Positions 17,394-23,192 of a DNA stretch of 64,000 nt are shown here, one piece after another. Both the position numbers and the translations under genes were made by a program. How positions within the stretch are numbered: position 1 is the first letter of the stretch; each line of letters begins with the position of its first letter. Source of the DNA: Gammaproteobacteria bacterium (GTDB lineage Bacteria > Pseudomonadota > Gammaproteobacteria > Tenderiales > Tenderiaceae); the NCBI GenBank assembly GCA_024277755.1, contig JAJRUN010000126.1, forward strand, positions 12 to 64,011, given 5' to 3'. The notes under the pieces were generated by a model. That model made no database searches. It was not told the DNA's origin and saw nothing but the letters and a program-made list of their open reading frames with translations.

Positions 17394-17849
17394 ATGAAAA
17401 AAGTACAACAAGGTTTTACACTGATTGAGCTGATGATCGTAGTAGCAATCATCGGTATTTTGGCAGCGGTAGCGATTCCTGCTTATCAGGATTATACGGT
17501 TAAGGCGAAGGTGAGCGAAGCAACCGGCATCTCTTCACCTGCCCGTACCGCCATTGGCCTGGCATGTAGTGAAGGCAATCTAAACGGCATAACTCACACT
17601 GGCTTGGGGCTTGGCACCAAAACAGACTACAGCGGCACCTATGTGACTAGCGTACTAGCTGCCGGCACCAGCGCTACAGCAGGGACTGTTACTGTCGACA
17701 TGAAAGCCATTGGTAGTTCTGTTGCTTCTGGCGATGATGTTGTCTACACAGCTGCTTGTGGTCCCGGTGGTGTTAAATGGACTATCACTGGCACAGGCAA
17801 ACTGGCTGCCTCTGGCGCTTCAAAAGGTAAATATCTGCCTAAGCAATAA
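17394..17849 (+). CDS. pilA: Type IVa major pilin
   Basis: 151 aa. Short leader MKKVQQG then [27 protein letters not shown] (prepilin peptidase site G|F, Glu5). AGGAGA Shine-Dalgarno sequence upstream. Confidence 0.93.
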
Positions 17850-17872
17850 GTTATCTAGCATAACAACAAATG

Positions 17873-17900
17873 AAGAGGAGGCCTTGGCCTCCTCTTTTCA
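17873..17900 (+). terminator. Rho-independent terminator after pilA
   Basis: Palindrome aagaggaggcc-tt-ggcctcctctt followed by a T-rich tail. Confidence 0.75.
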
Positions 17901-17940
17901 TTTCAAGACGCAATATACTACATAGCACCAAGGCACACAC

Positions 17941-19980: not shown

Positions 19981-20180
19981 TAATTTATAAAGGACTATTG
20001 TTAACAGCAGTAATAAAAAATATAGCCAGTTAAAAAAACAACATATAAATGCAGAGACAAACACCATTGGCAAAGAACAGCCAGATAACAGCATTTCAAT
20101 ATGTGACGCAGGTCAGCTCCAATATCACGCCCCCTATCTCATAAAAAAACTCACTGCCATCAAGCCCGGAACCACCGCGA

Positions 20181-22238
20181 ATGCAAGCAATGAAATCAAC
20201 CAAAGCTAAGCACGTTTACAGTGTATTAATCATCACCATACTGACTAGCCTTGTTTATTTCCCTGGACTCAGTGATTTCTGGCTCGCTGATGACCGCCCC
20301 AACATCATTGCCAATCAGGCGCTAAAGATAGATTCACTAGACACCAACAGCCTCTTAGCTGCTGCAACATCAAACAACAGCGGCCCTCTCAAGCGACCAA
20401 TATCCAGCCTGAGTTTCGGCCTGAATTATTATTTCTCAGGCAAACAATTTGACGCTAGCGATTTCAAAATCACCAACTTAGCCATCCACATCGTCAATGG
20501 GGTGCTTGTTTATGCCATTGCTTTTTTCCTGATCATCGCATTAAAGCGATCAACAGCAAAAGACCTTCCTGTCAAAACCCTTGCCCTGTTCATTGCCCTG
20601 GCGTGGGCTCTGCACCCAATCCAACTGACCGCGGTGCTCTACCCGGTACAAAGGATGACCAGTCTATCGGGCATGTTTGTCTTTGCAGGCTTATTACTCT
20701 TCATTATTGGCCGATTACGCCTGGCGGCTAATCAATCCTACGCTTTGATACTGATGTATCTCGGCATAGGGCTAGGCACATTATTTGGGGCATTGAGTAA
20801 AGAAAACGCCTTATTGCTGCCTTATCTTGCCGTTGCAATTGAACTAACGATATTCAGTCAGTTGGTAACCACGGATAAAAGATTGCACGCCAGGGCCACA
20901 AAAATTTTCTATGCCACCACGGCAGTTATCCCGGCCACAGCAGCTCTTTTATATCTTGCAACTCACCCAGGCATCGTTACAAACGGTTACATGGTCTTTC
21001 CATTCTCACTTCCTGAACGGCTGATGACAGAAGCAAGGGTATTGTTCATGTATCTTGGGCAGATGTTCTATCCGGCACCGGCACAGTTTGTCCTTAGCCA
21101 CGACACCCTAACCGTCAGCAAAGGCCTGCTGCAACCCTGGACAACACTAATCGCCGCCCTGGGGATACTGCTACTCGCTGGCACCTCTCTACTAAAAAGA
21201 AAAGCCTACCCACTATTAAGCTTTGCTGTTCTCTGGTTTCTGGCTGCCCATGCCATGGAATCCACTGTATTTCCGCTACGATTAATGTACGAACACCGTA
21301 ATTACGTCGCCAGTTTTGGCATTATCTTTACTGCCATTTATTGCATATTCCTCATATCTAATATGCTATCGACAAATAAACTGATCCGACTTGTTCCGGC
21401 TATCATTATCAGTCTTTGCCTGGCTCTCGCCACCTATACACGTTCTGAAATCTGGTCAAGCTATGACTCCTTGAGCAGTTTCGACGTAAAAAACTACCCC
21501 AATTCAGCCATCGCACATTCGAATCGGGCAAAACACCTCATAAAAACCGCCGGCTCACTTAGCGACACCTATGAACACTTGAGGGCTGCGGTACAACTTA
21601 ACCCCTTAATCGCCGTCCCGTTAATTACCATGACGCAACTGCACACCGCCTTTCAAATAGGCATAGAGAACAACGCATTTGCCGTTGAAGAGACCAGCGC
21701 TACACCAGAAAATTATTATGCTCCTCTGAAGATGAATGGCGATTACATCAAAAAACTACGCCCACTTGTCAGCACAGAGCTTGAATCGAGACTGCGAAAT
21801 AACATGGGCGCCGAAACGATCTCAGTTCTCGCCACTGCTATTACCGCTGGGGTGACTAATAAATGTCGCATCAACGGCCCATGCGAGGAGCTCATAACTG
21901 ACGCTCTAAAATGGTCGCACATTGTTCTGCAAAACAAAGCGTCTCAACCACTACATAAAGCCATTATCTACAACAAACGCTCACAACTGCTTATTTATCT
22001 TGGCGATTACCGCAGCGCCCTTAGCGACCTTGATAAGGCCTATCAAGTAATGCCAGATAAGATTTATCTGCTATTTCAGAAACTTGCTTTACTGATGGCA
22101 TTAAGAGATCTTGAAAAGGCCGAGACACTGATAAACACTATAGAAGCACACCCAGCCTTTTCTACACTGCACCATGAGCCTTTAACCAAAGCCAAAAGTG
22201 ATTTGAGTTTTTTAAAGCAGCGCCAGAATAAACATTGA
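20181..22238 (+). CDS. GT-C-fold membrane glycosyltransferase with C-terminal TPR-like domain, paralogue 2
   Basis: 685 aa, colinear with the preceding ORF (LADDRPNI, WALHPIQLTAVLYPVQRM, MYEHRNYVASFG). The C-terminal domain is much more diverged. Confidence 0.65.
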   Translation: MQAMKSTKAKHVYSVLIITILTSLVYFPGLSDFWLADDRPNIIANQALKIDSLDTNSLLAAATSNNSGPLKRPISSLSFGLNYYFSGKQFDASDFKITNLAIHIVNGVLVYAIAFFLIIALKRSTAKDLPVKTLALFIALAWALHPIQLTAVLYPVQRMTSLSGMFVFAGLLLFIIGRLRLAANQSYALILMYLGIGLGTLFGALSKENALLLPYLAVAIELTIFSQLVTTDKRLHARATKIFYATTAVIPATAALLYLATHPGIVTNGYMVFPFSLPERLMTEARVLFMYLGQMFYPAPAQFVLSHDTLTVSKGLLQPWTTLIAALGILLLAGTSLLKRKAYPLLSFAVLWFLAAHAMESTVFPLRLMYEHRNYVASFGIIFTAIYCIFLISNMLSTNKLIRLVPAIIISLCLALATYTRSEIWSSYDSLSSFDVKNYPNSAIAHSNRAKHLIKTAGSLSDTYEHLRAAVQLNPLIAVPLITMTQLHTAFQIGIENNAFAVEETSATPENYYAPLKMNGDYIKKLRPLVSTELESRLRNNMGAETISVLATAITAGVTNKCRINGPCEELITDALKWSHIVLQNKASQPLHKAIIYNKRSQLLIYLGDYRSALSDLDKAYQVMPDKIYLLFQKLALLMALRDLEKAETLINTIEAHPAFSTLHHEPLTKAKSDLSFLKQRQNKH

Positions 22239-22298
22239 CCATTGCGACAACATATACGATTATCAGCTAATAAATAACCAACTCAAATATCTTAAATA

Positions 22299-23192
22299 AT
22301 GGATCAACTCAATTACTCAATATCAATCATTCTTCCCGCCAAAAATGAAGAACGGGGACTGGAAAAATTACTTCCACTGCTTTCAGAAAAATTTACAGAT
22401 GCGGAAATTATCATTGTAAATGACGGTTCAACAGATAACACCGTAGCAGTTGCCGAAGCCAATGGTGCCAACGTTATCAGCCATCCTTACAGCATGGGTA
22501 ATGGCGCAGCTATCAAATCTGGCGCACGAAAAGCAAAAGGCGATGTACTTGTTTTTATGGATGCCGATGGCCAGCATCGCCCCGATGACATTTCAAGATT
22601 ATTAAAAAAGATATCTGATGGCTATGACATGGCCATTGGTGCCCGCCAGCTCGACACGCACGCGACAATATTTAGACGCTACGCCAATATTGGTTACAAC
22701 AAACTTGCCTCGCTGATGACCGGCCACAAGATTGAAGATCTTACCTCTGGATTCCGCGCAGTACGAGCCAGACATTTTCGAAAATTTCTATACCTGCTAC
22801 CAAACGGTTTTTCCTACCCAACCACAAGCACTATGGCATTTTTCAGATCAGGGCTCGCCGTGACCTACATACCTATCAAGGCTATGCAGCGCGAAGGAAA
22901 AAGCCACATTAGAATATTTCGCGATGGCATGAAGTTTTTGATTATTATTTTAAAGATTGGCACACTCTTTTCACCAATGCGGTTTTTTCTTCCAATAAGT
23001 GCATTACTATTTTTAACCGGCAGTCTCTACTATGCTTACACATATATTGAGTATGAACGATTCACAAATATGAGCGCCTTATTATTTTTATCATCTCTTT
23101 TCACCTTTCTTATTGGCATAGTATCCGAGCAGATATCATCACTTCACTACAAAGGAGTCGAGGAAGCTCAACGAAGAACCAAAAGAGACTAA
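22299..23192 (+). CDS. GT2 polyprenyl-phosphate glycosyltransferase (DPM1/GtrB/ArnC-like)
   Basis: 297 aa. ISIILPAKNEE...IIIVNDGSTDNT, D-x-D motif FMDADGQH, and two C-terminal TM helices typical of the lipid-phosphate-sugar synthase subfamily. Confidence 0.75.
   Translation: MDQLNYSISIILPAKNEERGLEKLLPLLSEKFTDAEIIIVNDGSTDNTVAVAEANGANVISHPYSMGNGAAIKSGARKAKGDVLVFMDADGQHRPDDISRLLKKISDGYDMAIGARQLDTHATIFRRYANIGYNKLASLMTGHKIEDLTSGFRAVRARHFRKFLYLLPNGFSYPTTSTMAFFRSGLAVTYIPIKAMQREGKSHIRIFRDGMKFLIIILKIGTLFSPMRFFLPISALLFLTGSLYYAYTYIEYERFTNMSALLFLSSLFTFLIGIVSEQISSLHYKGVEEAQRRTKRD

Follow-up and report, generated by a model that had tools for sequence, protein, structure and literature searches.

To our knowledge, only two types of enzyme have been well studied in the glycosylation of Gram-negative pilins, the Wzy_C O-oligosaccharyltransferases and the GT-C glycosyltransferase TfpW. 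Glycosylation of the pilin affects how the pilus functions, how susceptible the cell is to phages, and the antigenicity of the surface. The locus described here lies in a stretch of 64,000 nucleotides (the window) from contig JAJRUN010000126.1 of a gammaproteobacterium of the Tenderiaceae, in which the pilin gene pilA is followed on the same strand by two long open reading frames (ORF1 and ORF2) and by a gene for a family-2 glycosyltransferase (GT2a). A function of this cassette in pilin O-glycosylation is predicted and is well supported by the modeled fold, the motifs, and the synteny. The system is probably of the TfpW kind, with its donor coming from another pathway.

TfpW (AAM52060.1), known from the group IV strains Pa5196 and PA7 of Pseudomonas aeruginosa and P. 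paraeruginosa, is a GT-C protein of 646 residues with 11 transmembrane (TM) helices that acts as the pilin O-arabinofuranosyltransferase, modifying Ser/Thr of the pilin at several sites (bioRxiv 10.1101/2020.04.19.049825). A DDX motif in its periplasmic loop 1 is essential, its C-terminal tetratricopeptide repeat (TPR) domain is periplasmic, its gene stands immediately 3' of pilA, and pilA-linked homologues occur in several genera (bioRxiv 10.1101/2020.04.19.049825). A further motif in periplasmic loop 4, YX6PFX7P, was reported to be conserved in all named TfpW homologues (Villela et al. 2020), and both TfpW and TfpO have been shown to protect against pilus-specific phages. An earlier note on this DNA had proposed an undescribed route of pilin O-glycosylation, on the premise that no characterized TMTC-like GT-C enzyme with TPR acts on a pilin, and had listed TfpW as a different type. 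TfpW is such an enzyme, and it shares the loop-1 DDX motif, the TPR, and the position after pilA. Since TfpW is already of the same kind, it was an overstatement to call this kind of pilin glycosyltransferase undescribed. The route has a second precedent in streptococci, where O-glycosylation of Ser/Thr-rich protein regions by a GtrB-type synthase together with a GT-C enzyme is established (PMC12041528). What appears to be new here is the lipid-phosphate sugar donor made by a GT2 enzyme, the occurrence of the paralogues in tandem, and how large and how broad the family is; in the literature searched, coverage of which was incomplete, no description was found of a GT2-coupled, TPR-bearing GT-C enzyme encoded beside pilA.

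The cassette begins with pilA (17394 to 17849, + strand), which encodes a type IVa major prepilin of 151 residues, the presumed acceptor, with matches to the Pfam families N_methyl (3.3e-10) and Pilin (4.9e-08). Ser and Thr make up 24.6% of its globular part, with TxT pairs at T60/T62 and T68/T70 of the mature protein, and the two Ser/Thr-rich stretches named earlier as candidate sites are present. ORF1 (17941 to 19980, + strand; 679 residues) starts 91 bp 3' of the pilA stop codon and is followed by ORF2 (20181 to 22238, + strand; 685 residues) and GT2a (22299 to 23192, + strand; 297 residues). The order given in the earlier note, with pilA, a hairpin, two ORFs of about 680 residues, and a GT2 gene on one strand, was recovered in full, as were its motifs. 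ORF1 and ORF2 are 52% identical across 665 residues and are therefore paralogues; all family-invariant residues are kept in ORF2. The NCBI gene call for ORF1 (P0001) has 649 residues and starts at Met31 (MLSDD...). That start, which leaves out 17941 to 18030, would remove TM1. Because ORF2 and all homologues agree with a start at the GTG at 17941, the deposited annotation is probably wrong at this point. The gap between ORF1 and ORF2 (19981 to 20180) is 200 bp long, A-rich, and non-coding, the other junctions of the cassette being 60 to 91 bp; no pilin remnant and no ORF were seen in it, and it may mark a site of recombination or contain an internal promoter.

The structures of ORF1 and ORF2 were modeled with AlphaFold2 using the family alignment of GT-C/TPR proteins (67 sequences, 29 to 76% identical). 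The full-length ORF1 model had a pLDDT of 94.6 and a pTM of 0.92, and the model of ORF2 residues 1 to 430 had values of 94.3 and 0.93. In a Foldseek search with the full-length ORF1 model, TPR matches dominated, and the membrane domain was therefore modeled alone. For the membrane domain of ORF2, 9 of the 10 top matches were GT-C structures (probability 0.95 to 1.00, TMq 0.35 to 0.52). The best was Pmt4 (9i5k_A; E 7.6e-4, TMq 0.52), and further matches were to AglB, STT3, AftB, Pmt1-Pmt2, DPY19, PglB, AftA, and EmbA/B. Model helices combined with hydropathy gave 11 TM helices in an N-in/C-out topology, with the positive-inside rule holding (K+R density of 0.27 in cytoplasmic loops versus 0.07 in periplasmic loops), and in ORF1 the periplasmic TPR domain occupies residues ~421 to 679. 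Nearly all invariant residues (acidic, basic, and aromatic) are located in the periplasmic loops EL1 to EL5. By these confident models, ORF1 and ORF2 are shown as predicted 11-TM GT-C enzymes with a periplasmic TPR domain; for the two large ORFs, the earlier note had expected the GT-C type and the TPR.

In the 67-sequence alignment, the motifs LSDDIPNI (ORF1) and LADDRPNI (ORF2), HPIQLTAVLY..VQRM, and MYEHRNY correspond to columns that are invariant or nearly so, namely, D34, D35, H142, P143, Q154, R155, E367, R369, N370, and Y371. Some 33 residues are invariant in total. D34 is among them, D35 is at least 90% conserved, and the pair lies 8 residues past TM1 in EL1. For the C-terminal domain, a profile of the family matched only TPR structures in the Protein Data Bank (PDB; OGT and consensus TPR, E 1e-11 to 1e-19) at profile positions ~585 to 676, and a search of the PDB with the single ORF1 sequence gave nothing meaningful. 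Motifs were surveyed in 493 family proteins, and Cys residues were counted in 480 full-length members. Exactly two Cys were present in the C-terminal domain of 425 of the 480, which fits a periplasmic disulfide.

It could be argued that ORF1 and ORF2 are non-catalytic accessory or chaperone proteins of the pilin, comparable to TfpY-like proteins, with the TPR aiding assembly and the GT-C domain a degenerate scaffold. Some accessory genes found in this slot encode non-enzymatic proteins, such as TfpX, TfpY, and TfpZ (PMC11841053), and no curated glycosyltransferase model matches the membrane domain. The pattern of conservation makes this reading very improbable: among sequences as little as 29% identical, the invariant residues cluster in the periplasmic loops and include the Asp pair of EL1 and the counterparts of the metal- and phosphate-binding motifs of TMTC enzymes, and a polyprenyl-phosphate sugar synthase is the constant neighbor.

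Protein O-glycosylation by a GtrB-type synthase and a GT-C enzyme is also known in eukaryotes, in the PMT and TMTC systems. For the TMTC enzymes, the topology and seven motifs distributed over EL1 to EL5 have been described, M1 to M7 being DD, SHKSYRP..SFRLN, RxD, KE(T/Q)xxT, DW, PxxP, and ERxxY (PMC7801869). The comparison was made by eye against these published motifs, without alignment to TMTC sequences. In EL1, the DD of M1 corresponds to D34-D35 of this family and the M2 segment SHKSYRPLCVLTSFRLN to SGPLKRPLASLSFALN, which reads KRPL..SFxLN across the family; after TM3, in EL2, FAVHPIHT corresponds to WALHPIQ, HPI[QH] also being kept; in EL3, the KE(T/Q) of M4 corresponds to K204-E205-N; and in EL5, the ERxxY of M7 corresponds to E367-H-R-N-Y371. 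M3 (RxD) and M5 (DW) are partial, represented by R155 alone and by HDD, and the counterpart of M6 (PxxP) is ambiguous. The family thus resembles TMTC1-4 in the recurrence of DD, (K/Y)RPL...SF(R/A)LN, HPI(H/Q), KE after TM5, and E(H)R.Y in corresponding loops, in the 11 TM helices with N-in/C-out topology, in the C-terminal TPR on the non-cytoplasmic side, and in having a DPM1-like GT2 as partner, as TMTC enzymes have Dol-P-Man from DPM1. It differs in that the Pfam family DUF1736, which represents the EL4 loop of TMTC, had no match to ORF1 or ORF2 at E<=10, and in that TMTC enzymes are eukaryotic with cadherin as the acceptor, whereas the ORF1/ORF2 family is bacterial and periplasmic with pilin as the presumed acceptor.

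A similar balance was found for the PMT protein O-mannosyltransferases (GT39) of fungi and actinobacteria. They supplied the best structural match of the membrane domain (Pmt4, as above) and another with Pmt1-Pmt2 (6p25_B), they have a loop-1 acidic pair, and they use a lipid-phosphate-monosaccharide donor and protein Ser/Thr as the acceptor. In contrast to PMT, ORF1 and ORF2 have no MIR domain and carry a TPR domain after the last TM helix instead, neither Pfam PMT nor PMT_2 was matched, and identity was only 13 to 14%. The earlier assignment to the TMTC/PMT type with TPR was therefore upheld for fold, topology, and motifs and failed for membership in the curated Pfam families. Of the profiles named in the earlier note, Glycos_transf_2 was found in GT2a (8.8e-32) and TPR_19 weakly and in ORF2 only; PMT_2 and DUF1736 were absent.

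The Glycos_transf_2 match of GT2a (PF00535) includes the DAD within FMDADGQH, and hydropathy placed two C-terminal TM helices at ~213 to 238 and 258 to 276. In the PDB, GT2a matched ArnC (1.1e-15), DPMS (2.4e-14), and GtrB (1.1e-12), with residues 6 to 281 aligned to residues 26 to 313 of GtrB (5ekp), nearly the full length. By sequence comparison, GT2a is thus shown to belong to the predicted polyprenyl-phosphate glycosyltransferases of GtrB/ArnC/DPM1 type, in agreement with the first description of the locus. NCBIfam scores were far under their cutoffs for AglJ (124/325), Dol-P-hexose transferase (80/375), PgfS (72/500), and ArnC (67/529), and PpgS was also among the below-cutoff matches. 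With no equivalog above its cutoff, the class of the enzyme is clear and the sugar is not assigned.

The division of labor between a GT2 synthase and a GT-C transferase has close parallels. In the streptococcal GtrB/PgtC2 and PgfS/PgfM1 systems, the GT2 makes an undecaprenyl-phosphate (Und-P)-linked sugar and the GT-C enzyme transfers it outside the cytoplasm (PMC12041528); PgfS is also among the NCBIfam matches of GT2a, at 72 bits and below the cutoff. These systems differ in that their GT-C enzymes are YfhO family members without TPR (PMC12041528), in that many proteins serve as acceptors, through disordered Ser/Thr tracts, rather than one folded pilin, and in that they are Gram-positive, with GtrB/PgtC2 not encoded beside a substrate gene. 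GtrA/GtrB/GtrC and ArnC/ArnE-F/ArnT follow the same logic of GT2 synthase, flippase, and GT-C enzyme, and ArnC and GtrB are the nearest solved relatives of GT2a. Their acceptors, in contrast, are O-antigen or lipid A, their GT-C partners have no TPR, and no small flippase of GtrA or ArnE/F type is encoded in the window.

The conservation of the cassette was examined in the best 80 related loci from GTDB species representatives (1.33 Mb of Gamma- and Betaproteobacteria), 69 of which were evaluable for the genes adjoining the GT-C gene. Pilin linkage was scored when a PilA-like ORF lay on the same strand no more than 600 bp upstream of the GT-C gene. A pilin gene stood directly 5' of the GT-C gene in 58 of the 69 evaluable loci, with a median gap of 88 bp, and a GT2a orthologue stood directly 3' in 45 of them (59/80 when counted anywhere in the locus). 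Conversely, 64 of the 79 PilA-like ORFs in the 1.33 Mb adjoin a GT-C gene, with the pilin upstream. The pilA/GT-C arrangement is not due to chance. The earlier note had held that its proposal would fall if homologues showed no pilin linkage or if the large ORFs failed to model as GT-C folds; the survey it suggested found the linkage, and the models gave the fold. Most loci have one GT-C gene (54), with two in 21 and three in 5. The loci with two or three usually have a single GT2a, so that the paralogues probably have one donor in common and act on different acceptors.

Some of the scored exceptions in this survey proved not to be genuine. In two (L076 and L038), a pilin gene was present more than 600 bp upstream. 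In Cycloclasticus (L017, 5197 to 11896), the GT-C gene follows an operon of minor-pilin type (GspH/FimU-like, N_methyl, and PilX_N) and lies directly 3' of a gene for a 654-residue protein with a prepilin N-methylation motif, with a similar layout in L013; large or minor pilin-like proteins may therefore be acceptors too.

These results bear on whether the pilin is the target at all. Were the slot after pilA a hot spot for surface-glycan genes, the GT-C enzymes and GT2a might modify non-pilin targets, in general O-glycosylation of other periplasmic or surface proteins or, in the manner of GtrABC or ArnCT, in the O-antigen or lipopolysaccharide core. That we infer the pilin as the acceptor leaves room for this, as do one near homologue without pilin linkage (in L083) and the generic, variable glycan genes that relatives carry past the GT-C and GT2 genes (GT4s, Wzx/MurJ-like flippases, DegT, sulfotransferase, and phosphoenolpyruvate [PEP] mutase). 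Non-pilin targets are nonetheless unlikely when set against the same-strand pilin gene adjoining the GT-C gene in 58 of 69 loci at a median of 88 bp, the other prepilin-type genes that precede the GT-C gene in Cycloclasticus, and the pilin specificity of TfpW in the same layout. Enzymes with protein acceptors (TMTC, OGT, and TfpW) typically carry TPR domains, and GtrC and ArnT typically do not, so the TPR domain also points to a protein acceptor.

A different donor for the same acceptor was also weighed. The GT-C enzymes could be pilin oligosaccharyltransferases acting en bloc from an undecaprenyl-diphosphate (Und-PP)-linked oligosaccharide, with GT2a performing another step, such as the addition of a side-branch sugar. 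PglB, AglB, and STT3 are among the structural matches, loci without GT2a carry Wzx-like flippases and GT4s, and TfpW itself was described with oligosaccharyltransferase-like activity (bioRxiv 10.1101/2020.04.19.049825). The best matches in structure and motifs, Pmt4 and TMTC, instead use monosaccharide-phosphate-lipid donors, and GT2a is the most constant partner (59/80 loci) and is much better conserved (59 to 83% identity) than the GT-C enzymes (31 to 65%) or the downstream glycan genes. En bloc transfer is accordingly improbable, somewhat more so than a non-pilin target.

The preferred reading, pilin O-glycosylation of the TfpW kind with a different donor pathway, draws on likeness to TfpW in gene position, strand, size, number of TM helices (11), cytoplasmic N terminus, loop-1 DDX motif, and C-terminal TPR, TfpW being compared by its description. 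The YX6P core of the TfpW loop-4 motif (Y287...P294) is kept in the ORF1/ORF2 family at the equivalent loop. The donor differs: TfpW uses polyprenyl-phosphate-D-arabinofuranose (D-Araf) made via phosphoribosyl pyrophosphate (PRPP), DprE1, and DprE2 without a GT2 enzyme, whereas the window has a GtrB/DPM1-type GT2 and an operon for a cytidine diphosphate (CDP)-linked sugar. No D-Araf genes were found in the island or in the sampled loci without GT2. In PA7 the D-Araf genes are unlinked to pilA, so their absence from the 64-kb window is not decisive. The window also differs from the TfpW loci in its tandem GT-C pair (up to three copies in relatives) and in having no tfpX-like gene. The Wzy_C enzymes TfpO/PilO, PglL, and TfpM are alike only in role: they modify pilins, the TfpO gene lies right after pilA, and the role, masking from phages and antibodies, is apparently the same. 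Their fold is unrelated (ORF1 and ORF2 had no Wzy_C match), and they transfer Und-PP-linked O-antigen units en bloc.

Several points weigh against this reading. The sugar and the lipid carrier, like the pilin acceptor, are deduced. The membrane domain of ORF1 and ORF2 had zero matches in Pfam or NCBIfam, including PMT_2, DUF1736, and Wzy_C (Pfam at E<=10), and the Foldseek scores were modest (best E-value, 7.6e-4; TM scores, 0.35 to 0.52). The resemblance to TfpW comes from its published description rather than from a sequence alignment, and the full YX6PFX7P motif was present in 0 of the 493 family proteins, including 119 full-length ones from Acinetobacter. No GT2a-like gene was within reach in 21 of the 80 loci; the Wzx-like flippases encoded in some of these loci would point to other donors. 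In L083 (10001 to 11974), the family member P0008, 53% identical to ORF1 and 57% identical to ORF2 over the full length, has no pilin or GT2 gene nearby. It stands alone, which means that not every family member is linked to a pilin; its neighbors are a chorismate-binding (TrpE-like) gene and a gene with an FlgT_M domain. The connection of the CDP-sugar operon to the pilin glycan is the weakest link, because we know of no GtrB-type enzyme that uses CDP-sugars; the operon may contribute to that glycan.

A more far-reaching proposal can be made tentatively, with rather less confidence than the preferred reading. In it, a very large clade of bacterial TMTC homologues, practically without annotation, would be dedicated to type IV pilin O-glycosylation, distinct from TfpW, with an adjacent GtrB/DPM1-like synthase for the polyprenyl-phosphate-hexose donor, tandem paralogues, and swappable sugar operons, the one in the window being for a CDP-linked C-/O-methyl-6-deoxyhexose.

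In the proposed mechanism, PilS/PilR and sigma54 would drive pilA, and the hairpin would pass a fraction of the transcripts into the accessory genes. GT2a would transfer one sugar from a nucleotide sugar onto undecaprenyl (polyprenyl) phosphate at the cytoplasmic face, and the lipid-phosphate-sugar would be flipped to the periplasm, the LPG_synthase_TM-like protein encoded at 29901 to 30806 being the candidate flippase. Before pilus assembly, ORF1 and ORF2 would then transfer the sugar onto Ser/Thr residues of the pilin while it is anchored in the membrane, with the periplasmic TPR domain docking the pilin. The two would most likely share the donor and differ in acceptor, through distinct pilin sites or through priming versus glycan extension. 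The CDP-sugar operon and a second family-2 glycosyltransferase (GT2b) would probably add a strain-variable, C-/O-methylated 6-deoxyhexose. Judging by TfpW and TfpO, the benefit is probably that the pilus is hidden from phages specific for it and from other recognition at the surface, which would explain the hypervariability of the island.

Upstream of pilA lie pilS (14066 to 15685, + strand) and pilR (15685 to 17046, + strand), identified as ORFs by homology as the two-component sensor and response regulator of the sigma54-dependent pair for pilA. PilS/PilR homologues were found upstream of pilA-GT-C in 32 of the 80 related loci, and the orthologues in L081 and L084 matched Pfam 6TM_PilS/HisKA and Response_reg/Sigma54_activat. 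A sigma54-type -24/-12 element, TGGCACGGGACGTGCA (17246 to 17261, + strand; TGGCAC-N5-GTGCA), lies 133 bp 5' of the pilA ATG with one mismatch to TGGCAC-N5-TTGCW; the pattern was not enriched over the whole window. From its position, this element may be a PilR-dependent pilA promoter. TGTCAC/GTGACA repeats occur upstream of it at ~17060 to 17090 and may be putative PilR binding sites. The pilA/ORF1 gap contains a G+C-rich palindrome (17873 to 17896, no strand), AAGAGGAGGC-CTTG-GCCTCCTCTT followed by TTCATTTC, with a stem of 10 bp, a loop of 4 nt, and a T-rich flank. This hairpin is probably a partial terminator that restricts read-through into the accessory genes. Pilin accessory genes of P. 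aeruginosa and of other species have been reported to have the same device (PMC11841053).

The cassette occupies the slot between pilS-pilR-pilA and pilB-pilC-pilD-coaE, which in P. aeruginosa holds variable pilin accessory genes. The island differs from its flanks in G+C content, at 0.42 to 0.46 over 18 to 32 kb versus ~0.51 to 0.52. Beyond GT2a, a CDP-sugar operon of seven genes on the - strand (23288 to 29574) was identified with Pfam and NCBIfam. It comprises a CmcI-like O-methyltransferase (23288 to 24085), a second methyltransferase (24051 to 25136), a short-chain dehydrogenase/reductase (SDR) family reductase/epimerase (25133 to 26053), a C-methyltransferase (25957 to 27180), and an RfbC-like 3,5-epimerase (27177 to 27728), all from Pfam, together with a CDP-glucose 4,6-dehydratase (27725 to 28843; equivalog TIGR02622, 489 bits) and a glucose-1-phosphate cytidylyltransferase (28804 to 29574; equivalog TIGR02623, 474 bits), both above the NCBIfam cutoffs. 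The gene content predicts a complete CDP-glucose-derived deoxysugar pathway with a C-methyl, O-methyl 6-deoxyhexose as the product, a sugar that presumably recalls the CDP-vinelose of Azotobacter. Exilibacterium (L019) and L015 have this set of genes next to pilA-GT-C-GT2 as well, and L086 has part of it.

Next to the operon, a polytopic membrane protein of 301 residues (29901 to 30806, - strand) resembles LPG_synthase_TM of the MprF flippase-like family. Its own match to PF03706 had E=0.33, though over the full length; 5 of 7 homologues match that family (best, 7.9e-12), and a profile of the protein had no match in the PDB. It is a candidate flippase for the lipid-linked sugar. GT2b (30857 to 31729, - strand; PF00535, 1.2e-28) has one weak C-terminal hydrophobic segment, and all its NCBIfam matches were far below cutoff. 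GT2b and the 301-residue protein are paired in the window and in L015, L019, L021, and L085 and may form a second synthase/flippase module for a lipid-linked sugar. When the window was searched for small flippases of the GtrA type, two antisense artifacts were the only matches. The conserved right flank of the island consists of pilB (31967 to 33709; T2SSE), pilC (33713 to 34942; T2SSF), pilD (34957 to 35832; Peptidase_A24), and coaE (35883 to 36482; CoaE), all on the + strand and assigned by Pfam. The P. aeruginosa pilA island is flanked by tRNA genes, unlike the window, where none were found across the 64 kb. Over the 64 kb, nearly all 2-kb intervals have a negative GC skew (~-0.05 to -0.28), regardless of gene orientation.

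Turnover within the island was seen most directly in a near-identical relative (L085), in which PilB/C/D are 90 to 92% and PilA 91% identical to those of the window. It has a single GT-C gene, the product of which is 57 to 59% identical to either window copy, and a 69-residue remnant of a CmcI-like O-methyltransferase (4180 to 4389) in the place of the 6-kb sugar operon of the window. The comparison points to a recent deletion and replacement inside the island. In other relatives, the genes past GT2 are wholly different, and TylF and radical SAM genes join those listed above. The constant neighbors, set against the swapped genes, define a core of pilA, at least one GT-C gene, and GT2 within a glycan island of fast turnover. 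One contig labeled as a Klebsiella pneumoniae metagenome-assembled genome (L071, CAMATU010000021.1) carries pilSR-pilA-GT-C-GT-C-GT2 typical of environmental Gammaproteobacteria and is probably mis-binned.

The family is very large and as yet unstudied. At least 597 confirmed GT-C family matches were found in GTDB species representatives (tblastn, E<=1e-3), from a wide range of Gamma- and Betaproteobacteria. With the GT-C membrane domain alone as the query, clusters at 50% identity numbered 4,557 for E<=1e-30 and 17,858 for E<=1e-3. A protein search showed the GT-C/TPR family to be abundant in Acinetobacter species, and a homologue from Acinetobacter tianfuensis returned clusters that were all from Acinetobacter, at 53% identity or more. 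Teredinibacter turnerae was not among the proteins returned for an Exilibacterium homologue, and tblastn of the GT-C sequence against plasmids found nothing. Neither TfpW nor its named homologues appeared in the results of the protein searches, the plasmid tblastn, or the GTDB scan. The search with ORF1 returned mostly unnamed relatives; some family members carry the JGI label "protein O-mannosyl-transferase."

If the preferred reading is true, TPR-bearing GT-C pilin transferases would be widespread and modular and would work with GtrB/DPM1-type lipid-phosphate sugars, rather than being a curiosity of arabinose in Pseudomonas. The locus would be a hypervariable surface-glycan island, and it would offer a linked enzyme-substrate pair, a TMTC-like GT-C enzyme and its pilin, in which the selection of acceptors by TPR domains could be studied. 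A function would also be provided for thousands of proteins labeled "hypothetical" or "tetratricopeptide repeat protein." Should the distinct clade proposed above be true as well, it would be a prokaryotic counterpart, and possibly an ancestor, of the TMTC O-mannosylation of eukaryotes, with one defined substrate encoded alongside.

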